Notes under the pieces: model-generated | Told to the model about the DNA's origin: nothing | The model's database searches: none | Seen by the model: only the letters and a program-made list of their open reading frames with translations | Shown: positions 2,346 through 51,731 of the stretch, in pieces | How positions within the stretch are numbered: position 1 is the stretch's first letter | Layout of the letters: every line of letters starts with the position of its first letter | DNA from: Escherichia coli | GTDB lineage: Bacteria; Pseudomonadota; Gammaproteobacteria; Enterobacterales; Enterobacteriaceae | Assembly: GCF_011045215.1 (NCBI RefSeq) | Contig: NZ_CP049201.1 | Strand: one strand, 5' to 3' | DNA length: 64,000 nt | Program-made: the position numbers and the translations under genes

Positions 2346-3887
<1,542 letters not shown>

Positions 3888-3955
3888 CCTTAAAGAAGCG
3901 TTCTTTGTAGTGCTCACACAGATTGTCTGATGAAAATGAGCAGTAAAACCTCTAC

Positions 3956-4032
<77 letters not shown>

Positions 4033-4074
4033 AATTTGCACGGCAAATTTGAAGAGGTTTTAACTACATGTTAT

Positions 4075-4150
4075 GGGGCTATAGCTCAGCTGGGAGAGCG
4101 CCTGCTTTGCACGCAGGAGGTCTGCGGTTCGATCCCGCATAGCTCCACCA
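4075..4150 (+). tRNA. alaV: tRNA-Ala (TGC anticodon) in the 16S-23S spacer
   Basis: GGGGCTATAGCTCAGCTGGGAGAGCGCCTGCTTTGCACGCAGGAGGTCTGCGGTTCGATCCCGCATAGCTCCACCA, 76 nt. Confidence 0.95.
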
Positions 4151-4334
4151 TCTCTGTAGTGATTAAATAAAAAATACTTCAGAGTGTACCTGCAAAGGTT
4201 CACTGCGAAGTTTTGCTCTTTAAAAATCTGGATCAAGCTGAAAATTGAAACACTGAACAACGAAAGTTGTTCGTGAGTCTCTCAAATTTTCGCAACACGA
4301 TGATGAATCGCAAGAAACATCTTCGGGTTGTGAG

Positions 4335-7236
<2,902 letters not shown>

Positions 7237-7329
7237 ACAACGCCGAAGCTGTTTTGGCGGATTGAGAGAAGATTTTCAGCCTGATACAGATTAAATCAGA
7301 ACGCAGAAGCGGTCTGATAAAACAGAATT

Positions 7330-7449
7330 TGCCTGGCGGCCGTAGCGCGGTGGTCCCACCTGACCCCATGCCGAACTCAGAAGTGAAACGCCGTAGCGCC
7401 GATGGTAGTGTGGGGTCTCCCCATGCGAGAGTAGGGAACTGCCAGGCAT
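7330..7449 (+). rRNA. rrfH: 5S ribosomal RNA
   Basis: TGCCTGGCGGCCGTAGCGCGGTGG...GGAACTGCCAGGCAT, 120 nt. Confidence 0.96.
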
Positions 7450-7501
7450 CAAATTAAGCAGTAAGCCGGTCATAAAACCGGTGGTTGTAAAAGAATTCGG
7501 T

Positions 7502-7578
7502 GGAGCGGTAGTTCAGTCGGTTAGAATACCTGCCTGTCACGCAGGGGGTCGCGGGTTCGAGTCCCGTCCGTTCCGCCA
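7502..7578 (+). tRNA. aspU: tRNA-Asp (GTC anticodon) distal to the rrn operon
   Basis: GGAGCGGTAGTTCAGTCGGTTAGAATACCTGCCTGTCACGCAGGGGGTCGCGGGTTCGAGTCCCGTCCGTTCCGCCA, 77 nt. Confidence 0.95.
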
Positions 7579-7588
7579 CTTATTAAGA

Positions 7589-7618
7589 AGCCTCGAGTTA
7601 TCGCTCGAGGTTTTTTTT
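7589..7618 (+). terminator. Rho-independent terminator of the rrn operon
   Basis: Inverted repeat CCTCGAG-N-CTCGAGG followed by a run of T residues directly after the tRNA-Asp. Confidence 0.7.
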
Positions 7619-7740
7619 CGTCTACATTTCTATTATTGCTAAAATCGCAAAAATCCTCTGCATTTTACGCTCTTTTTCCGCAACAGTCTGAAGCCCATAA
7701 TCACCTCAGTTAACGAAAATAGCATTAAAAGAGGCATATT

Positions 7741-8544
7741 ATGGCTATCCCTGCATTTGGTTTAGGTACTTTCCGTCTGAAAGACGACGTTGTTATTTCA
7801 TCTGTGAAAACGGCGCTTGAACTTGGTTATCGCGCAATTGATACCGCACAAATCTATGATAACGAAGCCGCAGTAGGTCAGGCGATTGCAGAAAGTGGCG
7901 TGCCACGTCATGAACTCTACATCACCACTAAAATCTGGATTGAAAATCTCAGCAAAGACAAATTGATCCCAAGTCTGAAAGAGAGCCTGCAAAAATTGCG
8001 TACTGATTATGTTGATCTGACGCTAATCCACTGGCCGTCACCAAACGATGAAGTCTCTGTTGAAGAGTTTATGCAGGCGCTGCTGGAAGCCAAAAAACAA
8101 GGGCTGACGCGTGAGATCGGTATTTCCAACTTCACGATCCCATTGATGGAAAAGGCGATTGCTGCTGTTGGCGCTGAAAACATCGCTACTAACCAGATTG
8201 AACTCTCTCCTTATCTGCAAAACCGTAAAGTGGTTGCCTGGGCTAAACAGCACGGCATCCATATTACTTCCTATATGACGCTGGCGTATGGTAAGGCCCT
8301 GAAAGATGAGGTTATTGCTCGTATCGCAGCTAAACACAATGCGACTCCGGCACAAGTGATTCTGGCGTGGGCTATGGGGGAAGGTTACTCAGTAATTCCT
8401 TCTTCTACTAAACGTAAAAACCTGGAAAGTAATCTTAAGGCACAAAATTTACAGCTTGATGCCGAAGATAAAAAAGCGATCGCCGCACTGGATTGCAACG
8501 ACCGCCTGGTTAGCCCGGAAGGTCTGGCTCCTGAATGGGATTAA
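7741..8544 (+). CDS. dkgB: 2,5-diketo-D-gluconate reductase B (aldo-keto reductase)
   Basis: 267-aa ORF with aldo-keto reductase character ([15 protein letters not shown]); conserved position after rrnH. Confidence 0.9.
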
Positions 8545-9644: not shown

Positions 9645-10496
<852 letters not shown>

Positions 10497-36018: not shown

Positions 36019-36594
36019 ATGGATATACATTTTAAAGCACAATCTCCTGAGGCAGTAACGCTCGCCGTGTGGCCAGATAATAATCCTCTGTTCACTGACT
36101 CTCTTGCCCATTTGATCACCGAAATAAACGTAATAAATCGCGTAGAAGATTTTCTTTTCGTCAATTTTTGCATCGATAACTTTATATACTTTATTCATGA
36201 TGAGTGGCTTGAAAAGTTGAACAAGTCAGGCCTGAGGGGGGTGCTGGTTATTGACCGTTTTATGCATTCGCTGGCGAATTATTGGCGTGAAAAACAACAG
36301 GATATTATCTTGTTATCGGTTGGCGATCGGGACCTGACGTCATTTGTATCGGCCCTGAATAGCCTGTCTTATGGACAAAGCAGGGTGCTAGAAGATGTCA
36401 TGCCGATAACAGAAAAAGAAATTTTTGTGTTACGTAAACGCCTCTCCGGTATGTCCGTAAGAAATATCGCACTCACCCTTAATTGCTCGGTTAAAAGTAT
36501 TTATTATTGCCAGTATTCTTTATTAAAAAAATTGAGGCGTTCGTCACGAATAGGCGAGATTTATATCCATCACTCTCACGTGCATGAGACTTAG
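36019..36594 (+). CDS. LuxR/FixJ-type HTH transcriptional regulator (191 aa)
   Basis: C-terminal HTH EKEIFVLRKRLSGMSVRNIALTLNCSVKSIYYCQYSLLKKL fits the LuxR-type pattern; no receiver-domain motifs recognised in the N-terminal part. Confidence 0.6.
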   Translation: MDIHFKAQSPEAVTLAVWPDNNPLFTDSLAHLITEINVINRVEDFLFVNFCIDNFIYFIHDEWLEKLNKSGLRGVLVIDRFMHSLANYWREKQQDIILLSVGDRDLTSFVSALNSLSYGQSRVLEDVMPITEKEIFVLRKRLSGMSVRNIALTLNCSVKSIYYCQYSLLKKLRRSSRIGEIYIHHSHVHET

Positions 36595-36798
36595 TCGTTA
36601 GCCTGTTTTTTCTGGCGGAATGACGGCATAACCCGGAAGGGATATGCCGCCTGCTTCAGCCTATCACGCCATCAACGCAAAAACTCCCCAGCCAAAATAC
36701 TCCCGGCTGTAGGTAACATTACGCATCGGCGCCGCGCTTAACTCTGCCCGAACCTCAAGCGCGAAACCTGATCCTACCCACGTAATATGGACACAGGC

Positions 36799-37665
36799 CT
36801 AAGCGAGGTTCTGGTTTTCAAATTGTTCCGGACTGAGGCCGCCACACCAACTGTGCCGCCGCCACCGATTGTAATCACATTCGATATAATTAAACACCGT
36901 TGCCCGCATTATTTCCCGGCTGATAAAGTGTTCTCCATGGATACATTCCACTTTCAGCGAATGAAAGAAGCTTTCCACGCAGGCATTATCGTAGCAGCAA
37001 CCTTTTGCGCTCATACTTCCACGCAGATTATGCCGCTTCAGTTGCGCCTGATAATCTGCTGAACAGTACTGGCCTCCACGGTCCGTGTGAACGATAACGT
37101 TCCGGGGCCTCTTACGCCGCCACAGCGCCATCTGCAGGGCATCGCAGGCCAGTTGCGCCGTCATGCGTGGCGACATTGACCAGCCAATAACGGCACGTGA
37201 CCACAGGTCAATGACCACTGCCAGATACAGCCAGCCTTCATCTGTACGTAAGTACGTGATGTCTCCTGCCCACTTCTGGTTCGGGCCACTGGCGTAAAAA
37301 TCCTGCTCCAACAGATTTTCTGACACAGGCAGGCCGTGTGCGCGGTAGCTGACCGGGCTGAACTTCCGGGAGGCCTTTGCCCTCAGTCCCTGACGGCGCA
37401 GGCTTGCCGCCACGGTTTTTACGTTAAAGGGGTAACCCTGAGCACGCAGTTCATCCGTCAGGCGTGGGGCACCGTAACGCTGTTTTGACCGGGTAAAAGC
37501 CGCGAGGACAACGCTGTCGCAGTGTTGGCGGAACTGCTGACGCGTGCTTATCCTTGTCCGCCGCTGACACCACGTATACCAGCCGCTGCGGGCCACCCGG
37601 AGCACGCGGCACATTGCTTTGATGCTGAACTCAGCCTGATGTTTTTCAATAAAGACATACTTCAT
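36799..37665 (-). CDS. insF: IS3 transposase OrfB (DDE integrase-type catalytic domain)
   Basis: 288-aa ORF with DDE-domain residues (...WAGDITYL..., ...[10 protein letters not shown]...) inside the IS3 element. Confidence 0.9.
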
Positions 37666-37970
37666 TTCAGGCGCTTCGCGAAGTATGTCGCGGCCTTTTG
37701 GAGGATAGCCAGCTCTTCATCCCGTTCTGCCAGCTGGCGTTTGAGACGTGCAATCTCGGTAGACATCTCCAGTTCACGTTCAGAAGACGTCTGCTGATTT
37801 TGCTGTTTACTGCGCCAGTTGTAGAGCTGTGATTCATACAGGCTGAGTTCACGGGCTGCGGCAGTAACACCGATGCGTTCAGCAAGCTTCAGGGCTTCAC
37901 TGCGAAATTCAGGCGAATGCTGTTTACGGGGTTTTTTACTGGTTGATACTGTTTTTGTCATGTGAGTCAC
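37662..37970 (-). CDS. insE: IS3 transposase OrfA (HTH protein)
   Basis: 102-aa [55 protein letters not shown]... inside the IS3 element. Confidence 0.9.
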
Positions 37971-38042
37971 CTCTGACTGAGAGTTTACTCACTTAGCCGC
38001 GTGTCCACTATTGCTGGGTAAGATCACATCGCTATTAATATT

Positions 38043-38150
38043 TTGACGAATGATAAGGTATTCAAGGCAGGGTTAAGACGTAAGATGCGAAAAGCAGCCA
38101 TGGACAGAAACTATCTCGCGTCAGTACTTGCGGGGAACTGGCTTTCGTAA
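38043..38150 (+). pseudogene. 3'-terminal fragment of an ISAs1-family (H-repeat-associated) transposase gene
   Basis: Translates to [35 protein letters not shown], matching the conserved C-terminus of ISAs1/H-repeat transposases; truncated right next to the IS3 end. Confidence 0.75.
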
Positions 38151-38337
38151 TCTTGCCCTGATCCCGATAGCGGTCTAATTATTTATAGCACAAGTGGTTT
38201 TTCAATGAATGGGGAAGATCAAGTGAAAAATAATATTCATTAAAAATTGAATAAAATTGAGAGAAGTATATCTCTTTTTAAAAAAGATCCTATTACTTGA
38301 TAGAAGTAATGGTAATTTATGATATGTTCTTATTACA

Positions 38338-38589
38338 TTGAAGAGTATAACTCTTTCCAAAACAGAATTAACATCATCCGTTCTTAAGCAATATCGATTG
38401 GAACTTCTGAAGTATCATGTTGAACTTGTTGAGTTATTTAATAAATATTATATTGTGAATTATAATCCTCAAAGACCCTATCGTATGCATATGTTTCCTC
38501 CTGTGGATGCGGTAGATGGACTTGTGTTTGGTGAAGTGGACCTGAGTAGAATTAGAGATAATATGAATCAGATCTCAAGGAGAATATAA
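38338..38589 (+). CDS. Hypothetical small protein (83 aa), AT-rich, upstream of the PAAR gene
   Basis: ORF only; no recognised motif. Confidence 0.3.
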   Translation: MKSITLSKTELTSSVLKQYRLELLKYHVELVELFNKYYIVNYNPQRPYRMHMFPPVDAVDGLVFGEVDLSRIRDNMNQISRRI

Positions 38590-38906
38590 GAATTGGAAAG
38601 GAGCTTTCCTTTCAGGCTGCTTTAACTTCGGTAAAATACGTTCTTGAAGCACCAGATAATAAAGTCGGTAATATTGCCACTATTGAGTTTTTCATCAAGG
38701 TTAATTACGAGAATAACCCTTCTGATAAAGCTGAAGTTGAGAAGGTGCTTAATGAATCAGAACTGAAGAATGCTCTTAAGTCCAGAATTCTTGATGATAC
38801 TGTCAGGCAACACAGATGATTAAATCATCTGGATGTATTTAATGCATAAACATTTCTGAATGATACATAAAAATTGTATTTAATGTTTCCCTCCTGGAGA
38901 ATCTCT

Positions 38907-39191
38907 ATGCCCACAGCAGCCAGACTCAGCGATAAAGGCACCCAGCATGACGGTTATTATGAGACCACCATTATTGCAGGCTCCTCCACCGTCTTTATTG
39001 ATGGTATGCCCGCCGCCCGTCAGGGCGATCCGCTGACACCGCATTCCAAACCTGACCATCCCCCTCACCCCCGTAAAATCGCAGGCGGCTCTGCCACTGT
39101 CTTTATTGACGGTAAACCTGCCGCCAGAACCGGCGATGCCATTGACTGTGGCGGCGTGGTTATCGGTGGCGGCACGGTAAATATAGGCTGA
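38907..39191 (+). CDS. PAAR-domain protein (T6SS spike tip)
   Basis: 94-aa protein with PAAR repeats (DGMPAARQGDP, DGKPAARTGDAIDCGG); start placed at the internal Met preceded by GGAGA; immediately upstream of vgrG. Confidence 0.85.
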   Translation: MPTAARLSDKGTQHDGYYETTIIAGSSTVFIDGMPAARQGDPLTPHSKPDHPPHPRKIAGGSATVFIDGKPAARTGDAIDCGGVVIGGGTVNIG

Positions 39192-39211
39192 TTAATTATC
39201 AGGGAGGCTGT

Positions 39212-41611
39212 ATGCCCTCAGAAGGATTACGTTTCACGCTGTCGGTGGACGGTATCGTGGAGATGGCGACGGCGGTGGTGAGCTTCCGTCTGTACCAGCA
39301 CCACTGCACGCCGTTCATCCTGGATGTGGATATCGCCAGCGGGCTGTCTGACCTGACGGCGGAGGATTTTCTGGAGAAGAGCGCGGTGCTGACGGTCTGG
39401 CAGGGTGATATCCCGCAGCGTTACGTCAGCGGTATCGTGACGGAGGTGCAACTGGGGGAGAACAACGACTGGCAGATGCGTTATTCCCTGAGCATCAGCC
39501 CGCCGCTGTGGCGGGCAGGGTTACGGCAGAACTTCCGTATCTTCCAGCAGCAGGACATCCAGACGATATCAGCACAGCTTCTGAGAGAGAACGGAGTGAC
39601 GGCATGGATGCCGCTGTTTTATGAAGACCATCCGGCGCGGGAGTTCTGTGTGCAGTACGGGGAAAGCGACCTGGCGTTTCTGGCGCGGCTGTGGGCGGAG
39701 GAGGGGATTTTCTTCTTTGAGCGGTTTGCGGCGGACAGTCCGGAGCAGAAGCTGACGCTGTGCGACGATGTGGCGGGGCTGTCACAGGCGGGAGAGCTTC
39801 CGTTTAACCCGGACACATCGGCAGGAGCGGAGACGGAGTGTCTCAGTACGTTCCGTTATGAGGCGCATGTCCGCCCGTCGTCGGTGCAGAGTCAGGATTA
39901 CACGTTTAAGGTGCCGGACTGGCCGGGGATGTATGAGCAGCAGGGTGAGAACCTGAACGGACAGCTGGCGCAGTACGAGATATTTGATTATCCGGGAAGG
40001 TTCAAGGATGAGCAGCACGGCAAGGATTTCACGCTGTACCAGATGGACAGCCTGCGCAGTGATGCGGAAAAGGCCACAGGGCAGAGTAATTCACCGAAGC
40101 TGTGGCCGGGAACGCGGTTTACGCTGACGGGGCATCCGCAGAAGATGCTGAACCGTGAATGGCAGGTGGTACAGAGCATACTGTCAGGAAGCCAGCCGCA
40201 GGCGCTGCACGGCAGCCAGGGGAGGGGAACCACGCTGGGAAATCAGTTAGAGGTGATACCGGCAGACCGGACGTGGCGTCCACGGCTGCAAAGCAAACCG
40301 AAGGTGGACGGGCCGCAGAGTGCCATTGTGACCGGGCCGAAGGGTGAGGAGATATTCTGCGACGAACATGGCCGGGTACGGGTGAAGTTCCACTGGGACC
40401 GTTATCACGGGATGACGGAGGCGAGTTCATGCTGGGTGCGGGTATCGCAGGCGTGGGCGGGGCCGGGGTTCGGTAACCTGGCGATACCGCGGGTGGGCCA
40501 GGAGGTGATTGTTGACTTCCTGAACGGCGACCCGGACCAGCCCATCGTCACGGGACGGACCTACCATGAAGATAACCGCTCCCCGGGCGACCTGCCGGGA
40601 ACGAAGACGCAGATGACGATACGGTCGAAGACCTATAAAGAAAGCGGATTTAACGAGTTGCGGTTTGAAGACGCCACCAGTAATGAGCAGGTGTATATCC
40701 ACGCGCAGAAGAACATGGATACGGAGGTGCTCAACGACCGGACAACGGATGTGAAGCATGACCATACGGAGACCATTGGTAACGACCAGAAGATAACGGT
40801 GGTGAAGGGGCAGACGGTTGAGGTCGGGACCAGAAAAGAAGGAGGCCACGACCAGAGTATCACGGTGGCGAACGACCGGAGCATAACGGTACGTAACGAC
40901 CAGACGCTGAAGGTGACAAATGACCGGACGGTGAGCGTGAGTCACGATGACGGTCTGTACGTCAGAAATGACCGTAGGGTGACGGTGAAAGGGAAGCAGG
41001 AGCATAAGACGACGGGTAACCACATCAGCCTGGTGGAGGGGAAGCACAGCCTGGAGGTGAAGGGGGACCTGGCGGAGAAGGTGAGTGGCGCGCTGGGGAT
41101 AGAAGTGGACGGGGATATCGTGCTGGAGAGCAGCAGCCGGATAAGCCTGAAGGTGGGTGGCTCGTTTATCGTCATTCAGCCGGGCGGAGTGGATATTGCC
41201 GGGCCGAAGATAAACCTGAACGGTGGGGGCAGTGCGGGGACACCGGTGGGGACGATGCAGCCGGCGGTGCTGGAGGCTCCGGAGGATGAGAGCAGTGATG
41301 ATGGCAGTGATGACTCCGGAGAGGATAGTGGCAATCCCGCAGGGAGTGACGGAGGAGGTGATGGCGGTGACGATGAAGATGATCCTGAAAAATATACCCT
41401 CCAGTTCCATTTTACGGACGATGACGGGATACCGTATTCAGAGACGCAGTATATTGCCTTTTTTGAGGATGGCACACAGACGCGTGGTGAAACAGACAGA
41501 GAGGGATATACAGAAATATTTTATACAGATACAGCACAGGAAATTAAAGTCCAATTGTTATTTTCGGATGCTTTTTATATTGAGCCGGAGGGGCATTATG
41601 GCAGGGAATAA
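39212..41611 (+). CDS. vgrG: Type VI secretion spike protein VgrG (799 aa) with an acidic linker and a small C-terminal extension domain
   Basis: Gp27-like N-terminal region, gp5-like OB-fold and beta-helix (WAGPGFGNLAIPRVGQEVIVDFLNGDPDQPIVTGRTYHEDNR; repeated ...NDRT/ITV... units), then an Asp/Glu/Gly/Ser-rich linker and a roughly 70-aa C-terminal domain. Confidence 0.92.
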   Translation: MPSEGLRFTLSVDGIVEMATAVVSFRLYQHHCTPFILDVDIASGLSDLTAEDFLEKSAVLTVWQGDIPQRYVSGIVTEVQLGENNDWQMRYSLSISPPLWRAGLRQNFRIFQQQDIQTISAQLLRENGVTAWMPLFYEDHPAREFCVQYGESDLAFLARLWAEEGIFFFERFAADSPEQKLTLCDDVAGLSQAGELPFNPDTSAGAETECLSTFRYEAHVRPSSVQSQDYTFKVPDWPGMYEQQGENLNGQLAQYEIFDYPGRFKDEQHGKDFTLYQMDSLRSDAEKATGQSNSPKLWPGTRFTLTGHPQKMLNREWQVVQSILSGSQPQALHGSQGRGTTLGNQLEVIPADRTWRPRLQSKPKVDGPQSAIVTGPKGEEIFCDEHGRVRVKFHWDRYHGMTEASSCWVRVSQAWAGPGFGNLAIPRVGQEVIVDFLNGDPDQPIVTGRTYHEDNRSPGDLPGTKTQMTIRSKTYKESGFNELRFEDATSNEQVYIHAQKNMDTEVLNDRTTDVKHDHTETIGNDQKITVVKGQTVEVGTRKEGGHDQSITVANDRSITVRNDQTLKVTNDRTVSVSHDDGLYVRNDRRVTVKGKQEHKTTGNHISLVEGKHSLEVKGDLAEKVSGALGIEVDGDIVLESSSRISLKVGGSFIVIQPGGVDIAGPKINLNGGGSAGTPVGTMQPAVLEAPEDESSDDGSDDSGEDSGNPAGSDGGGDGGDDEDDPEKYTLQFHFTDDDGIPYSETQYIAFFEDGTQTRGETDREGYTEIFYTDTAQEIKVQLLFSDAFYIEPEGHYGRE

Positions 41612-42401
41612 TAATACTAGTGGGACTTCACAACCCGAGTCGCAAGTATGTGTAGTACCGCAAAAAATTACAAATAAATTTAAAATAATGATGAGTAAGG
41701 CTTGTAAAGCACAGAAAATGGTTTTATTGAAAAGAGCAGATGATATTATGTCATGGGAGGGGGAACAACAACGAGATTTTATTAAAGTTTTTGGCCTTAA
41801 AGGCGAGGACATTATAAAAATCAGAAAGGTTGGGGAAGATACTGGGAAACGAATGCAAGCGAGACTATTCATAATGGATGGCATCAGACAAATAATGACG
41901 ATTGCAAATGGTTTGACGATCGAAAGCTATAAAGATTATACGAACTGCAATGAATTTGCTGCTTTTATTAGTCCACATCTTGATCCTCCTTACATTGTAA
42001 ATATCGGAGCGCATTTTGAATACAGACATGGTATAAAACAGTCGGTTACAGGTAGAGACTCTCATGTAAGTACACTTTGCCATGAAATGTCCCATATATT
42101 TTGGTATTGGGGTGACAATCAAAAAGGTGGTATGTGGACTCAGGATTATACGGGTATTAATAAGTTCGCAACAAGTAATAAGGATGAAGTTAGCTATGAG
42201 AAACATGTTTCAGTGGCTAATGATCTGGTTACATTGCGTAAAGATCAGTTATTTGAGAATGCATATAATGTTGAAAGATATTTTTATATAAAATTAAATG
42301 ATGAAGATATTGAAGCTCAAGATGAGAATATGTTAGCAAAAAAAGTAGAGGATAAAATAAAAGAGATAGAAAAATGTTTTGATGAGTTGATGGGGAAATA
42401 A
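41598..42401 (+). CDS. Putative T6SS effector: uncharacterised protein with an HExxH zinc-metallopeptidase-like motif (267 aa)
   Basis: Start ATG lies within the last 14 nt of vgrG (translational coupling); contains CHEMSHIFWYWGDNQKGGMWTQDYTG (HExxH followed by conserved Asp residues); abrupt drop in GC content relative to vgrG; followed by a secreted-protein gene. Confidence 0.6.
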   Translation: MAGNNNTSGTSQPESQVCVVPQKITNKFKIMMSKACKAQKMVLLKRADDIMSWEGEQQRDFIKVFGLKGEDIIKIRKVGEDTGKRMQARLFIMDGIRQIMTIANGLTIESYKDYTNCNEFAAFISPHLDPPYIVNIGAHFEYRHGIKQSVTGRDSHVSTLCHEMSHIFWYWGDNQKGGMWTQDYTGINKFATSNKDEVSYEKHVSVANDLVTLRKDQLFENAYNVERYFYIKLNDEDIEAQDENMLAKKVEDKIKEIEKCFDELMGK

Positions 42402-42402
42402 G

Positions 42403-43242
42403 ATGAAGAGGTTGGCTTTCTATAATCTAAATTATGTTGTACTGATGGTTTTTTTTCTTTGTTTTTTGCCATTATCTATTGCAATTGCAATAGATAATGA
42501 GAATCTTTTTGTAAAAAAATACAGATTCGGTTTTGAACGAAGAAATGACAATGGGAAACCAATTATTTATCTTAGCCATAATTTAGCGCCAGAGGAAAAT
42601 ATAAGTAATGAATTAACAAATGATGTTGTTGTTAAATTGGTGGTTAAGCCACATGCTGAAAATATTTTAGCTACTATAACTTTTTATAACAGTAGTACTA
42701 AATCGTATTTTCTCCCCAGAATATATTATCCAAAGAACTTCCAAAAAGGAAATGGAGATGTATTTGATGCTTTGTGTGATGACGAATTCTTGATTACATC
42801 AGGAAATATTAGCTTAGACTATCTAGGAGGCTTTTGTCCCTTTGAGCTTGATTTGAATTTGAGCCGATGGGTGGAAATTACGGCAGGTAAAAAAATATCT
42901 TTTGATGTAAAATTGAATGATATGCATTCATTTCTCCCCAGTTTAAATAATTATCATATAAAAACATTAAACTACAAACTTGTTAGGAGAAAATGGTTTG
43001 TATTAAAATCAATTAATGAAACATTCCTCTCTATTTTGATGAAAAGATACTCATGTAATGAATATGATTTTAGAGCTATATCATTTAGTGGAGAGGGATG
43101 TGATAATTATGAATTTGATAAAAATACGTTTTTTTTTGTTAATCAAATATTAGATAAAGATGATGAGCAACATTCTGTTCATATTAGGTCTAATGAATTT
43201 TCCATCAATATCGATGGAAGCTTGGTAAAGCAACCTTATTGA
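42403..43242 (+). CDS. Putative cognate immunity protein (279 aa, N-terminal signal peptide or membrane anchor)
   Basis: Begins 1 nt after the effector stop; hydrophobic N-terminus (VVLMVFFLCFLPLSIAIAI) suggests periplasmic localisation; AT-rich like the effector gene. Confidence 0.5.
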   Translation: MKRLAFYNLNYVVLMVFFLCFLPLSIAIAIDNENLFVKKYRFGFERRNDNGKPIIYLSHNLAPEENISNELTNDVVVKLVVKPHAENILATITFYNSSTKSYFLPRIYYPKNFQKGNGDVFDALCDDEFLITSGNISLDYLGGFCPFELDLNLSRWVEITAGKKISFDVKLNDMHSFLPSLNNYHIKTLNYKLVRRKWFVLKSINETFLSILMKRYSCNEYDFRAISFSGEGCDNYEFDKNTFFFVNQILDKDDEQHSVHIRSNEFSINIDGSLVKQPY

Positions 43243-43304
43243 TTAAAATGTATCGCAGGTTTTATTTTCTGTAATGCTGGTGCATGTGCGTAAATATTTC
43301 TTAA

Positions 43305-43730
43305 GAGCCGGAAACACCTCTTCCGCCTTTATCGACGATAAACCTACCGCCAGAACCGGTGATGCCATTGACTGCGGTGGCGTGGTTAAAGGTGGAGGGC
43401 GATGTGGTGCTGGAGAGCAGCAGCCGGATAAGCCTGAAGGTGGGCGGCTCGTTTGTGGTCATCCATTCAGGGGGCGTGGACATCGTCGGGCCGAAAATCA
43501 ATCTCAATAGCGGCGGTAGTCCGGGAACGCCGGTGCCGACGCTGCAACCGGCGGTTCTGAAAGCGCTGGCAGATGATAAAAGTTTAGCGGCTGAGCAAAA
43601 TGATAGTAATGCATCGTCCGATCAGAATGATAACAACGATGAGGGTGAGGAAGCGCCAGAAAAATCGGTGTGTAAGGAGTGCCTGAAAAGGGCGCAAGAA
43701 GCCGCCGCCGTTTTTGCGCCTCGTGGATAA
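43305..43730 (+). pseudogene. PAAR-vgrG deletion-fusion remnant (3' end of a PAAR gene joined to the 3' end of a second vgrG)
   Basis: 43309..43392 closely matches the PAAR 3' end at 39092..39175 (...FIDDKPTARTGDAIDCGGVV...); from about 43393 the sequence matches vgrG at about 41110..41245 (VLESSSRISLKVGGSF.V.....GGVDI.GPKINLN.GG) and then continues into a different C-terminal tail. Confidence 0.8.
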
Positions 43731-43736
43731 GGGAGA

Positions 43737-44506
43737 ATGACAATGATAACAGTATCGCCACACGCTACCGATCAAGACAAATATATTATCTGGCTGAAGC
43801 AAGCTGAATCATTCTGTTCTGCCGCTGGTTTGGATTACATAGATGTGCTTGTTGACCAGGCTGGAACCGACCAACCTTTGCAAAATGATATGCTTCATCT
43901 GTCGCCAGCCATTCACTGGTATGCCCTGTTTGAAGGAACGCCTGAAGCTGAGACGATGGAGTATTCCCCTGTAGTGTTACGCCTGTACTTTGCGCTCAGT
44001 AGCCATCGCAAATTTCTGGCACAACTGATGGCGTCATTTGCTGATACGCCGCGTCTTACTTTGTTGATATCCCCTCTTACATTCGACCTGCTGGGCGGCA
44101 TCTTCAGGTATTGTCACAGGTTCAGTGGGAAGAACAGACCGGATTGCTGCGTTACTATGATAATCGGGTGTTCCCTTTACTGTTCACACATGTTTTGACT
44201 AACGAGCAGCAGGCGACATTTACTGATATTGCGTTGTTCTGGAGCTGGTTAGACCGTGATGGTGAGATTAACTGGAAATCAGGAAGTTTTTCACCAGAAC
44301 GCAGGCTTACTGACAACCCGGAGATGAATCGGGTGGATGATGTACAGGTGGGATTGATGGGCTGTATCTGCGACGCTGAAGTCCTGATGAAGGAGAAAGC
44401 AGTCAGTGAACTCAGTCAGGAAAGCTATTTTGCCCACTGTCTTGATATTGCTTTCAGGGCCAATGACGCGAAATATTTCGGAGCTTTGCGGGACTTCGAA
44501 GGATAA
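43737..44506 (+). pseudogene. T6SS adaptor/chaperone-like gene (DUF4123-type, Tap/Tec family), split across two overlapping reading frames
   Basis: Two overlapping ORFs (43737..44198 and 44111..44506) together span about 256 codons, in the adaptor position between a vgrG 3' end and a DUF2235 effector gene; family assignment is by position and recalled sequence character. Confidence 0.5.
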
Positions 44507-44819
44507 TATTGTGGTGATGTACGGGGAGATTTATCTGTTTAAAAGTCCGTAGCTGTTAATATCAAGAGATAATCGTGAAATAAACGGAAAATCAAGCTCG
44601 ACATGTAATGGTAGTATCCATCATGTTGCATTTGTGTTCGATCGTAATGTCAGTTCACTTGGCTGCAATATATTTTGCGTAATATCATCAATGCTCTGTC
44701 GATATTCCAATGTGTGACAATCGAAAGATATGCATTTTATTTGCTTCTATGTCAAAACTTTATTGTCGTAGAAACAATACCCATCAATTAAAATCTCTCA
44801 AAGTAAAAGAACCAGCAAC

Positions 44820-45362
44820 ATGTCCAGCAAAATAAGAAATGGAATGAATATAACAAAAGTAGTTAAAGGCTGTCTGGTATTAATTTTGATGGTGATTTCT
44901 GGTTGCTCAGCAGATAATTACGACGATTATACTGCAGGTGATCTCCGGGCAATAAATCATATTAAAGGTATCAGTATTAATTGGTTCACCGTAAATGGTT
45001 ATCGGGTCCATGGTTTGGGCGGTGGATATTGCTGCATAATGTTACCAAAGAAGTGGCATTCTGGATTAAAAGCCCGGATCGAGTGGGAAGTAGACCCGAC
45101 CCCCCTTGAACCTATTGCAATGAAAAAAGAAGGTTTTGGCTATGAAGAAGATGCTTATGCTAAACATGCTGCAAATTATCAAAAATATAAAGTAATTGTT
45201 GACATCCCGGAATACGGCGCTGAACGTTGTGGCCTGACCGTTCATTTTCTGCCGTGTAATCAGATTAAAGTGACAACCGTCTGCGAGGGCTATGGCACAC
45301 CGAATTATCCTATCAAAGAACCCCGCGAGATGAAGGAACCTGCAACATGTCCAGCAAAATAA
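44820..45362 (+). CDS. Lipoprotein (180 aa), candidate Tle1-associated immunity or accessory protein (DUF3304-like)
   Basis: Signal peptide with lipobox (LILMVISGCSADN); directly upstream of and overlapping the Tle1-like gene. Confidence 0.55.
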   Translation: MSSKIRNGMNITKVVKGCLVLILMVISGCSADNYDDYTAGDLRAINHIKGISINWFTVNGYRVHGLGGGYCCIMLPKKWHSGLKARIEWEVDPTPLEPIAMKKEGFGYEEDAYAKHAANYQKYKVIVDIPEYGAERCGLTVHFLPCNQIKVTTVCEGYGTPNYPIKEPREMKEPATCPAK

Positions 45363-47440
45363 GTGGTCTGGCTTTTCCGTGTTATGCCCCCCCGGTGTTC
45401 CCTGAAGATGGGCGATTAATATTATCTGAAGCGCAGGTAAACGCGAACTACCTAAAACAAATCAATAAAACAGAAGAGCACAAAACCAACTGTAGTAAAC
45501 AGGCTGGATTTAGAATTGGCTTTACGTGTAATCAAAGTATGCATATTAGTCTGTTTTTTGATGGTACAAATAATAATGAATATAATGACACTCCTGGACA
45601 CCCAACCAATATTGCCAAACTGTTTCATACGACCTATCAGAACGCAGAAGAACAGGGATATTTTAACTACTATATACCGGGTGTAGGCACACCATTTCCC
45701 AAGATAGGTGAAATGGATTACAGCAACAGCGGGCTGGAGTTCGCTACTGGTGGTGAAGATCGAATTAATTGGGCATTATTACGCCTCGTGGATGCCCTGA
45801 GCTATTCCATTGACCCTTCCCATAAGCGACTGGATGATAATGTGGCAAAAGAGCACATTCCTCTTATGCGCGCTCCCTGGCCTATGACTGGTGAAGTGAA
45901 TCGTCGCAATGTGATTAACCCCTACCTGGAAAAATTACAGGGACTGTTAGAGCAAGCCAGTCCGCGCCTGCTAAACGTAAAGCTGTTTATCTACGGATTT
46001 TCCCGTGGCGCAGCGGAAGCACGAACTTTTGTTAACTGGTTGACTCAGTTAGCTTGCCCGCAGGAGCAACAGGTGATGCTGGCCGGGTTAGCTGTCAGTA
46101 TTGAGTTTTTGGGGCTGCTGGATACCGTAGCTTCTGTGGGGGCGGCGCATGTTTTACCGGGCGCTGCCGGTCATATGGGATGGGCCGATAGTACTCAGCA
46201 ACTCCCTGATGAGAGGCAGTTTCCCGGCCTGATTAAATGCTGCCGCCACTTCGTTGCCGCGCATGAGCAGCGGCTGTGCTTTCCGCTGGATTCAATCCGT
46301 CGTCCAGACGGAAATTATCCTTTAAATGCAGAGGAAATTATCTATCCGGGGATGCACTCTGATGTCGGTGGTGGCTATCCCGTTCGCGATCAGGGGAAGT
46401 CCTGTGGTGACTCAGGCGAAATTCTTTCTCAGATAGCACTGCATGATATGTATCTTGCTGCATTTGATTCAGGAGCACCACTTGCTGTTTATTCTAAATT
46501 TGTTACTCCATTAATAAAAGGTGTGTCGCCTCTGCGAATTATGAGTCCTTCTAGCGTAAAGGAATTTACGATTGCTAATTCATTAACAAAACGCTTCAAC
46601 ATCTGGCGACAAACGCTGCTGAACACCACCTTGCAGGGTACAGAAGAAATGATTGATACGAGGGAAGGTTATCACTCCTATCAACTTGCCCAGGTTCTTG
46701 AAAGCGCAATTAGCGATCAGATCGGCTGGATCACCGCCTGGCGTATCGGTCGCTATGCGAATAACAGCCTTCTTGTGCAACCTTTTTATATTAAGGCGCC
46801 ACAGCTGGATAAAGATGGACTTGATAAAGAGGCTAAAGCGCGTAAAGAACAAATGGAAAATATTGAAAAAGAGCGGGCGAACAAGCAGAAAGGGAATGGC
46901 ACACTTGATGAAAGTAATCAGGGCATTCCTATCCTTGACCCAACCAATGCTCAGTATCAGTTGCGAGAGGCAGCCCGAGAATTTCAGAGCGATTATAAAG
47001 GATGGACGCGCGATATTAACGGCAGCGTCATGGAGAAAGCCATTCAGATTCTTGTGGATGTCATTCCTAAATATCCGGTGTATCTGATTAATGGCGATGA
47101 TGAAGCAAAAGAATATCAGCAAATTAAGGCTATGGGAGACGGACTCTATCCACAATTTTTTATTGATTCACTGGGAACGGGAACGCGTACTCAGCCATGC
47201 GCTGAATTACTGGCCCTCTATGATGACCAGGTTCACGACTCCCGCGCCTGGTTTATGCAAAGTTCGCTGGGTGGACGTGAACCCTGGGGCGGTTATTTTC
47301 GCTACCGCATGATTTACTTCGGTGATGAGGCTAATAAAGAGCTGAAGCTAATCTCTGCAGATGGCAAAGTTGTTGGCGATCAGCCCACATCCAACCGGGT
47401 CATTTATTGGATGGAATCGAAAACGGTGAGCCGAGGTTAA
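45347..47440 (+). CDS. Tle1-family T6SS phospholipase effector (DUF2235 alpha/beta-hydrolase, 697 aa)
   Basis: DUF2235 hallmark ISLFFDGTNNNEYND...; nucleophile elbow GxSxG (IYGFSRGAAEAR); vgrG-adaptor-effector gene order. Confidence 0.75.
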   Translation: MSSKISGLAFPCYAPPVFPEDGRLILSEAQVNANYLKQINKTEEHKTNCSKQAGFRIGFTCNQSMHISLFFDGTNNNEYNDTPGHPTNIAKLFHTTYQNAEEQGYFNYYIPGVGTPFPKIGEMDYSNSGLEFATGGEDRINWALLRLVDALSYSIDPSHKRLDDNVAKEHIPLMRAPWPMTGEVNRRNVINPYLEKLQGLLEQASPRLLNVKLFIYGFSRGAAEARTFVNWLTQLACPQEQQVMLAGLAVSIEFLGLLDTVASVGAAHVLPGAAGHMGWADSTQQLPDERQFPGLIKCCRHFVAAHEQRLCFPLDSIRRPDGNYPLNAEEIIYPGMHSDVGGGYPVRDQGKSCGDSGEILSQIALHDMYLAAFDSGAPLAVYSKFVTPLIKGVSPLRIMSPSSVKEFTIANSLTKRFNIWRQTLLNTTLQGTEEMIDTREGYHSYQLAQVLESAISDQIGWITAWRIGRYANNSLLVQPFYIKAPQLDKDGLDKEAKARKEQMENIEKERANKQKGNGTLDESNQGIPILDPTNAQYQLREAAREFQSDYKGWTRDINGSVMEKAIQILVDVIPKYPVYLINGDDEAKEYQQIKAMGDGLYPQFFIDSLGTGTRTQPCAELLALYDDQVHDSRAWFMQSSLGGREPWGGYFRYRMIYFGDEANKELKLISADGKVVGDQPTSNRVIYWMESKTVSRG

Positions 47441-47697
47441 GTTCATAAGATTGAGGGGTTGGTGACCGGGAAAATGTAGACATGTAGTGCCTATTCACCC
47501 CAGTTCAAACCCATCCGCATCCCGCCATGCCGGAAACTTCACACTGTACTCCCAGGGAAAAATCACGTAATGCTGTTTTTTTTGTACTAAATAATTCGCA
47601 TTTTATGTTCAATAATTGAGGTGTTCCTTATTACCTAAAGCTGTTTTTCATTGCTTATACATGATCAAATACTCATTGCATAATTAAGGGGGACAAA

Positions 47698-50480
<2,783 letters not shown>

Positions 50481-50648
50481 CTTACTCTGCAAGGGATGAT
50501 GAAAAGTGCAACTTTATTCCACGCAGCTATTTAGACAGCGTACAGTAAACAAACGAAAGTTGTTATTTCAATGGTCAGGGCAAGAGCATAAAGTGTTTAC
50601 TACACACTATGCTCTTGTCCTGGAGTCAGGTCTTGTTTGGAGGGATAA

Positions 50649-51152
50649 ATGGTAGATATTGTCGAGGCCGATAAAACGGATATTTATTTCATTCAGGAGA
50701 GTGTTTATGGCAAAATCGGGTTGCCAGCTTTTGGTAATACAATAGGACCATCCGCACAGCAGGTTGTTAAAAAGGTATTCGCTGTCGTTAAAGAACGAGA
50801 TAAAACACATGCAAAACAGAGATTATTGTTGGAATATAATGGTAACAAACTCTGGATGAATGCTATTGATGGCAGTGAAGCTATCCTACCAATAGAATTT
50901 TCTAAGCGATACGAACTTTCATTATTCAATACTACTAATTTTGGAGAAGATCCTTTTCCTGATGTTAATTTATATAATAATATGAAATCAAGTTTTTTTG
51001 TAAGGTTTGGTGGAACATCCCATCCCGAGGCTTGGGCTATTTATAATGCAAGTACGAAAGAGGTTAAATATATAGAAACTGCAAGAGAAATTGATAAAAT
51101 ATTCAGTGATTTTAACTTGAGTGGTGCATTGCCAATTCACATTGGTCAATGA
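50649..51152 (+). CDS. Hypothetical protein (167 aa), AT-rich
   Basis: ORF only; no recognised motif. Confidence 0.35.
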   Translation: MVDIVEADKTDIYFIQESVYGKIGLPAFGNTIGPSAQQVVKKVFAVVKERDKTHAKQRLLLEYNGNKLWMNAIDGSEAILPIEFSKRYELSLFNTTNFGEDPFPDVNLYNNMKSSFFVRFGGTSHPEAWAIYNASTKEVKYIETAREIDKIFSDFNLSGALPIHIGQ

Positions 51153-51218
51153 TTTTTTAAATTGTGTGATTAAATAATTGAACATTAATGATGATTTATA
51201 GCATCATTATTCTATAAC

Positions 51219-51731
51219 ATGAATAAACGGATTGAATGTGTTATGTTAAAAATGAGTTTATACGTAATAATATTGTTATTTTCCTTTCAGATTAGTGCAG
51301 CCATTACTAGCAAGGAAAGTGAGGTTGTTTCACCATTATTAATGGATGTTAATTCTTCACTAACAATGGAAAATATTTCTGAATTATCCACATCATCGGA
51401 ACCATCGCAACAGGGGGTATTTCCTGTAATATGTACTCGACTTCATCCTGGTTCCGTAATGAAACGCCAGTTATTAACCGGCTGGGGGCCTGTTTTTATA
51501 ATTGGTGATGATCCTTTTTCTCTGCGCTGGATGAGTGAACATCTGGAGATCCTTAAATCGCTAAATGCCCTTGGTTTGGTTGTTAATGTTGAATCAGTAG
51601 AACGAATGGAGGTATTACAGCAGCGGGCTGATGGGTTATTGTTATTGCCAGTTATCTGCGATAATTTCGTGCAAACTCTGCAATTAAATGCTTATCCGGT
51701 ATTAATCACAGAGATGGAAATATCACAATGA
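51219..51731 (+). CDS. Hypothetical protein (170 aa) with a probable N-terminal signal peptide, AT-rich
   Basis: Hydrophobic N-terminus (LKMSLYVIILLFSFQISAA); no recognised motif. Confidence 0.35.
   Translation: MNKRIECVMLKMSLYVIILLFSFQISAAITSKESEVVSPLLMDVNSSLTMENISELSTSSEPSQQGVFPVICTRLHPGSVMKRQLLTGWGPVFIIGDDPFSLRWMSEHLEILKSLNALGLVVNVESVERMEVLQQRADGLLLLPVICDNFVQTLQLNAYPVLITEMEISQ

Follow-up and report, generated by a model that had tools for sequence, protein, structure and literature searches.

The 64,000-nucleotide stretch of Escherichia coli DNA analysed here (contig NZ_CP049201.1 of assembly GCF_011045215.1; hereafter the window) carries an intact open reading frame (ORF) for Tle1, a phospholipase effector of a type VI secretion system (T6SS), and directly upstream of it, overlapping its start, a gene for a small lipoprotein, tli1. 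A reading of the letters alone (the sequence-only reading) had recognised both genes and regarded the lack of an immunity gene downstream of the effector as an anomaly. It proposed that immunity is encoded upstream, or that insertion sequences (ISs) of the ISAs1 and IS21 families had removed a downstream immunity gene. Here, we argue that the locus is very likely a canonical pair of PA3290-type Tle1 and an overlapping upstream immunity gene of the DUF3304 family, that nothing was lost downstream, and that the module is probably stranded in this strain.

The effector ORF encodes a Tle1 of the already described PA3290 type, with phospholipase activity predicted from homology. Its catalytic domain matches Pfam PF09994 (Tle1-like, formerly DUF2235; E = 1.4e-25) and its C-terminal domain matches PF22137 (E = 6.7e-59; model positions 1-265 of 353 covered), both above the gathering score. 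The solved Pseudomonas aeruginosa Tle1 (PA3290; 4o5p) matches residues 11-677 with E = 2e-117, while no NCBIfam model matches Tle1 itself. The motifs by which the sequence-only reading had identified the protein, LFFDGTNNN (residues 69-77) and GFSRGA (residues 217-222), are present together with LLDTVAS (D259) and MHSDVGGGY (H337), and when the protein is aligned with 12 Enterobacterales and Pseudomonas homologues, all four stand in columns that do not vary. S219 of GFSRG, D259 and H337 form the predicted catalytic triad, assigned by motif and homology and matching 4o5p residue for residue. The protein has no signal peptide. A cluster of 662 E. coli sequences is represented by this 697-residue form, and comparison with other E. 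coli alleles shows purifying selection on tle1 within the species, with ratios of nonsynonymous to synonymous substitution (dN/dS) of 0.18-0.28. The module is rare: of 5426 complete E. coli genomes, 70 carry it, and tli1-like sequence occurs in 68.

The upstream gene, correctly seen as a lipoprotein gene by the sequence-only reading, belongs to Pfam DUF3304 (E = 2e-24). It scores 199.1 bits against the NCBIfam model NF053804, "Tli1a family immunity protein" (cut-off 110), and covers all of its profile (positions 1-155 of 155). A lipoprotein signal can be read from the sequence: there are lysines in the n-region, an h-region CLVLILMV and a lipobox ISGC, with Cys29 as the lipidation site and serine at position +2. 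By the +2 rule of E. coli, such a protein would be placed in the outer membrane, on its periplasmic side. The last 16 nt of tli1 overlap the start of tle1, and both genes have the same orientation. RefSeq gives the names tla1 and tli1a to the homologous genes of E. coli 23CRST027, with a Tle1-like effector gene after them. A search of solved-structure sequences gave no structural homologue of DUF3304, only chance matches to a RAF Ras-binding domain (E = 0.012 and worse), of which no single stretch was significant. Scans of positions 43200-47800 for promoters and terminators performed at chance level, with 13 promoter-like sites against 8.6 ± 2.9 expected and 2 terminator-like sites against 4.2 expected; the gap between tla1 and tli1 is 313 bp. 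Taken together, the assignment of the upstream DUF3304 lipoprotein as the putative immunity protein of Tle1 is strongly supported, its binding and neutralisation of the effector being extrapolated from homologues. Of the two alternatives raised by the sequence-only reading, it is thus upstream immunity that has held up, as the lipoprotein passes NF053804 and an upstream DUF3304 gene is the rule for PA3290-type Tle1.

That rule comes from a survey of gene order in other species. Starting from an alignment of Tle1 homologues, 76 loci were fetched from one-genome-per-species contigs, ORFs were called in them, and iterative hidden Markov models (HMMs) for Tli1, Tla1, VgrG and Tle1 were built from the E. 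coli genes. Positions were counted around the 69 tle1 genes flanked on either side by 700 bp of sequence or more. A DUF3304 gene lies upstream of tle1 in 63 of the 69 loci (upstream only in 50, on both sides in 13), downstream only in 4, and on neither side in 2. As a control of the HMMs, the nearest-upstream ORFs were compared with Pfam, and all 59 submitted matched DUF3304 (59/59; best E = 1.2e-38). The usual order is vgrG, tla1 (a DUF4123 adaptor), one to six copies of DUF3304 and tle1, and most of the 76 loci show this linkage of vgrG and DUF4123 to tle1. With ORF starts taken as the longest possible, there is an overlap between tle1 and its nearest tli1 in 48 of 66 cases. In the closest relatives outside E. 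coli, from Superficieibacter (71%), Hafnia (67%), Rahnella and Mangrovibacter, DUF3304 is found upstream and none downstream.

Downstream of tle1, the surveyed loci have no conserved family that could be a candidate for immunity. Most frequent there are a small PAAR-like ORF (87 aa; 22 loci, within L005-L046) and then a gene of ~384 aa (21 loci); in the three loci inspected (L005, L006 and L025), these two are followed by a protein of ~1110 aa, which suggests that in these non-E. coli loci the tle1 module sits inside a larger gene cluster. Since PA3290-type Tle1 normally has DUF3304 upstream, no immunity gene is missing downstream in the window. The comparison with homologous loci that the sequence-only reading had called for therefore leaves no anomaly to be explained: the expectation of a downstream gene had probably carried over the gene order of enteroaggregative E. 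coli (EAEC) Tle1 and its DUF2931-type Tli1 to a different subfamily. Two of the surveyed loci show more complex arrangements. In Pseudomonas laurylsulfativorans (L008, positions 2863-8307), two truncated tle1 fragments of 347 aa alternate with copies of tli1 before a full-length tle1, and in Enterobacter sp. BIGb0383 (L010) six tli1 genes lie between two tle1 genes. Both show how the tle1/tli1 module has been duplicated in tandem and shuffled.

Features of the Tle1 locus and its surroundings (positions are those of the window)
Feature	Position	Strand	Remarks
Younger spike/effector module	38907..43242	+	stacked upstream of the Tle1 module
PAAR	38907..39191	+	younger module
vgrG, full length	39212..41611	+	younger module
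M35-like metallopeptidase effector	41598..42401	+	younger module; overlaps vgrG stop
Candidate immunity gene, 279 aa	42403..43242	+	younger module; N-terminal hydrophobic segment, no family match
PAAR 3' fragment fused to vgrG 3' stub	43276..43730	+	remnant of older spike module
tla1, DUF4123 adaptor/chaperone	43737..44506	+	split into ORFs 43737-44198 and 44111-44506 by a 1-nt deletion
17-nt junction repeat, first copy	44820..44836	+	tli1 start
tli1, c-type paralogue	44820..45362	+	180-aa DUF3304 lipoprotein; predicted cognate immunity protein
17-nt junction repeat, second copy	45347..45363	+	tli1 stop / tle1 start overlap
tle1	45347..47440	+	intact 697-aa T6SS phospholipase effector (by homology), DUF2235, PA3290 type
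Spacer	47441..47697	+	257 bp; first ~39 nt are the decayed tle1 3' end
ISAs1-family transposase pseudogene, left part	47698..48275	+	frameshifted; opens with ATG at 47698
IS21-family (IS100-like) element, istA and istB	48276..50229	-	1954 bp, inserted in ISAs1 remnant
ISAs1-family transposase pseudogene, right part	50230..50534	+	from comparison with L002 and its annotated coordinates (PGAP)
ORF, 167 aa	50649..51152		no family match, no signal peptide
ORF, 170 aa	51219..51731		DUF2859 / ICE PFL_4695 family, signal peptide

The sequence that follows tle1 is listed in the table. A degraded ISAs1 element does stand downstream of the effector, as the sequence-only reading had it: the transposase remnant is frameshifted, and the Prokaryotic Genome Annotation Pipeline (PGAP) calls an ISAs1 pseudogene in the homologous stretch of other E. 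coli. The IS21-family element within it was identified by its IstB (Pfam, E = 7.7e-112) and by the rve domain of its IstA. The spacer between tle1 and the ISAs1 remnant had been described as about 250 bp of non-coding sequence; its length is 257 bp, and its first ~39 nt are not neutral non-coding DNA. The spacer begins with tle1's own decayed tail, because these ~39 nt remain homologous, in frame, to the 3' end of Superficieibacter tle1. In Superficieibacter, GAA stands in the place of the E. coli tle1 stop codon (TAA, 47438-47440), and CAG in that of another in-frame stop (TAG, 47477-47479), which follows 13 codons later. Beyond the elements, the two ORFs within 50649-51731 lie between two ISAs1 fragments and are conserved in E. 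coli carriers. We rejected both as immunity genes, as neither is found near tle1 in any of the 76 other-species loci and the first of them, in addition, has no signal peptide.

The genes that would deliver Tle1 are degraded in the window. The two halves of tla1 match the NCBIfam model NF053803, "toxin Tle1 chaperone Tla1", over profile positions 1-110 and 109-232. The deletion that separates them falls in a run of G (GGG at 44093-44095 versus GGGG in other genomes) and is absent from all of the other E. coli genomes carrying the sequence (68/68); tla1 is either a strain-specific pseudogene or appears split through a homopolymer sequencing error. Upstream of tla1, the cognate vgrG has been reduced to its last ~115 codons, behind the 3' end of a PAAR gene (PAAR motif, E = 4e-4). 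This vgrG is full length in E. coli strain 2017-02-2CC, where a gene of 743 aa is followed by DUF4123, three DUF3304 genes and tle1. The stub retains the C-terminal tail (...KSVCKECLKRAQEAAAVFAPRG), which is expected to recruit Tla1-Tle1, and has lost the body of the spike. Several other E. coli have this stub as well, and PGAP reports "VgrG, missing N-terminus" at homologous loci.

A younger module of PAAR, vgrG and effector is stacked in front of this remnant. Its effector, encoded by a low-GC gene (30-36%), has a weak Pfam match to the M35 metallopeptidases (E = 7e-4, below the gathering score) and contains the motif HEMSH; the 279-aa ORF that follows is presumably its immunity protein. In other E. 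coli strains, the T6SS core genes and hcp are found directly upstream of the vgrG modules. In the window, we found neither a nucleotide nor a translated match to tssJ, tagH, tssG, tssF, tssE, tssC, tssB or hcp, and PAAR is preceded instead by an IS3-family transposase (36799-37665) and by unrelated island genes for a LuxR-type regulator, an Ail/Lom protein, a 1403-aa autotransporter and an EAL protein. Positions 36500-43400 are not covered to at least 80% by any complete E. coli genome in the collection. With vgrG cut down to a stub, a frameshift in tla1, and neither the T6SS core nor hcp in the window, the Tle1 module is probably stranded, and delivery of Tle1 has probably ceased in this strain unless a T6SS elsewhere in the genome adopts it.

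The number of tli1 genes varies among E. coli carriers. A 17-nt repeat, ATGTCCAGCAAAATAAG, forms the end of each tli1 (...CPAK*) together with the start of the next gene (MSSKI...). In addition to the two copies in the window, it is found four times in the three-copy array of 2017-02-2CC (L002, at 4931, 5470, 6012 and 6539). The copies of this array, a, b and c, encode paralogues that are 60-79% identical in protein sequence. Two other loci (L001, with its copy at 9754-10278, and L080) have only the a-type, the window and one further strain (L003) have only the c-type, and strain 2018-05-2CC (L081) has none. In the latter, tli1 has been deleted precisely between junction repeats (L081, 8935-9100). 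The tle1 of that strain is 99.8% identical to that of the window and is annotated as frameshifted, and its T6SS is broken by IS3 and IS600. These differences, from none to three copies in E. coli, are consistent with recombination at the 17-nt motif.

Three other explanations of the locus have to be weighed. An immunity gene may once have stood downstream of tle1 and have been removed by ISAs1, IS21 or both, the upstream lipoprotein being unrelated to immunity. Sequences of both elements do follow tle1, a downstream DUF3304 gene is present in 17 of the 69 other-species loci (mostly Pseudomonas; only downstream in four), and whatever the ancient insertion of ISAs1 displaced cannot be reconstructed. 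However, IS21, which lies 835 bp downstream of tle1 and is not in the other E. coli loci compared, deleted nothing, because it is flanked by a 5-bp target duplication and its flanks are colinear with the sequence of 2017-02-2CC and contiguous in it; a deletion caused by this element is ruled out. As to ISAs1, all the E. coli carrier loci examined have its remnant at this one position, and many of these loci are from strains with complete T6SS clusters; the closest relatives outside E. coli keep DUF3304 upstream only. With the upstream gene passing the curated Tli1a model as well, this explanation is already largely refuted and we consider it extremely improbable. It is also conceivable that Tle1 is an inactive relic, its C-terminal truncation having abolished membrane targeting or activity, so that immunity is irrelevant. 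The two in-frame stops at the decayed 3' end, the partial coverage of the C-terminal Pfam model, the absence of the last 25-70 residues of the Kluyvera, Salmonella, Enterobacter and Pantoea homologues and the decay of the delivery genes around tle1 would all fit a relic. On the other hand, the motifs of the catalytic Ser, Asp and His are all intact and do not vary, the 697-residue form represents a cluster of several hundred E. coli sequences, the dN/dS ratios within the species are low, tle1 adjoins complete T6SS clusters in other strains, and the distal tail is already missing from homologues of 720-728 aa. An inactive Tle1 is, to our judgement, quite unlikely.

The remaining alternative concerns which paralogue was kept. 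If the a-type were the cognate Tli1 and the c-type were not, recombination at the junction repeats would have left a mismatched pair in the window, tolerated only because the T6SS is gone. The repeats would explain the loss of copies, the Tle1 of the window is 99.1% identical to that of L080, which has only the a-type, and the a- and c-types are only 60% identical to each other. Moreover, L003, which among the c-only strains compared is the single one with a complete T6SS, carries a Tle1 with a divergent N-terminal region (residues 64-208). But in the a-b-c array of 2017-02-2CC, it is the c copy that adjoins and overlaps tle1, and the Tle1 encoded there is 98% identical to that of the window. 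Tandem Tli1 arrays are also common, and complementation with a single tli1 gave protection in Klebsiella (PMC5649205). We therefore regard a mismatch as unlikely. A broader form of this idea, that the a, b and c paralogues are allele-specific and not redundant, with recombination at the repeats shuffling which copy stays, is in our view quite unlikely. If it were true, the window or the a-only strains would be natural mismatches of effector and immunity protein, tolerated only where delivery has failed, and the loss of immunity copies would be a driver or a marker of T6SS decay.

We therefore favour the canonical Tle1 with upstream DUF3304 immunity, and suggest how such a pair would work. Tli1 would be exported and lipidated and, as its Ser +2 predicts, would end up in the outer membrane facing the periplasm, where it could bind Tle1 injected by sister cells. 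The 16-nt overlap of stop and start could couple the translation of tle1 to that of tli1. Tle1 itself would be harmless in the cytoplasm of its producer because it has no signal peptide, and P. aeruginosa Tle1 is toxic only when targeted to the periplasm (PMC13133936). Normally, Tla1 would load Tle1 onto the C-terminal tail of its own VgrG; P. aeruginosa Tle1 is recruited by Tla1 and the last 20 residues of VgrG4a (PMC13133936). In the window strain, the cognate vgrG is a 3' stub, displaced by the newer PAAR-vgrG-M35 module. The sequence-only reading had expected the effector to be deleterious without a downstream immunity gene, which overlooks both the periplasm-only toxicity of PA3290-type Tle1 and the degraded delivery genes. 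Tli1 in this strain would probably serve mainly as a defence against competitors armed with Tle1.

Several observations weigh against this interpretation. The window keeps only the c-type Tli1, while the a-type is the sole Tli1 in strains with a 99%-identical Tle1, and the predicted cognate specificity of the c-type for the Tle1 of the window is unproven. Compared with its homologues, the E. coli Tle1 is shorter by 25 C-terminal residues (Kluyvera, Salmonella) or by ~70 (Enterobacter, Pantoea). This truncation is species-wide in E. coli, as the cluster representative also has 697 aa, and because the gene is under purifying selection we tentatively do not read it as inactivation. As for delivery, the frameshift of tla1, which sits in a homopolymer, may be due to a sequencing error, and the search for T6SS genes covered the 64-kb window, so that a T6SS may be present elsewhere in the genome. 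Finally, co-production of Tli1a did not rescue E. coli from periplasmic P. aeruginosa Tle1 (PMC13133936), and neutralisation by DUF3304 proteins is thus not uniformly demonstrated.

The Tle1/Tla1/Tli1 (DUF3304) system in its canonical order is already known and already named in RefSeq annotation, and beyond its correct annotation the locus is of limited importance. It does show that "the immunity gene follows the effector" is an unsafe rule, since DUF3304 immunity genes of PA3290-type Tle1 normally precede and overlap the effector, and that in scans both flanks are worth checking before a toxin is called an orphan. The locus is, in addition, an example of the stacking and decay of effector modules, in which a vgrG has been displaced and left as a stub, the adaptor is frameshifted, the T6SS core is lost and the number of immunity copies changes at short junction repeats.

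Among the closest described counterparts is the vgrG4a island of P. aeruginosa PAO1, which consists of VgrG4a (PA3294), Tla1 (PA3293), Tli1b (PA3292), Tli1a (PA3291) and Tle1 (PA3290). Tli1a of P. aeruginosa, a lipoprotein of the outer membrane, co-purifies with Tle1, and DUF3304 proteins are stated to be Tle1 immunity proteins in Burkholderia thailandensis and Klebsiella pneumoniae (2026, Journal of Biological Chemistry; PMC13133936). The PAO1 island shares with the E. coli module the Tle1 subfamily, the DUF4123 adaptor, the DUF3304 outer-membrane lipoprotein as immunity protein and the tandem copies of tli1. From the published gene numbers and operon statement, we infer that its gene order is the same as that of our P. 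alcaligenes locus (L041), in which an 883-aa Tle1 is encoded in the order vgrG-tla1-tli1-tli1-tle1. It differs in that its Tle1 has 884 aa versus 697 aa in E. coli, the E. coli protein lacking the distal C-terminus, and the window has a frameshifted tla1, a stub of the cognate vgrG and a single tli1. K. pneumoniae HS11286 likewise has a DUF2235 protein, Tle1KP, with an upstream array of Tli1KP genes (KPHS_23060-23090). Four tandem tli1 genes precede tle1 there, and complementation protected the prey in competition assays (PMC5649205). A Klebsiella homologue of Tle1 (P0078) is 49% identical to the protein of the window. In contrast to the window, the T6SS of HS11286 is active, and its Tli1KP paralogues are 94% identical at the nucleotide level versus the 60-79% protein identity of the E. 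coli paralogues.

The pair of EAEC 042 Sci-1 (PDB 6sjl/6ski) is similar in its general design, with a DUF2235 phospholipase as cargo on the C-terminus of VgrG and an outer-membrane lipoprotein as immunity protein. Its Tle1, however, is only distantly related to that of the window (30.8 bits to 6sjl, over residues 208-345), its loading proceeds via the TTR domain of VgrG with no DUF4123 adaptor, and its Tli1 is of the DUF2931 family and encoded downstream. The two ORFs downstream of tle1 in the window match no family and DUF2859, respectively, and not DUF2931. It is probably from the EAEC 042 pair that the expectation of a downstream immunity gene was taken, whereas the gene order of the window is that of the PA3290-type systems.

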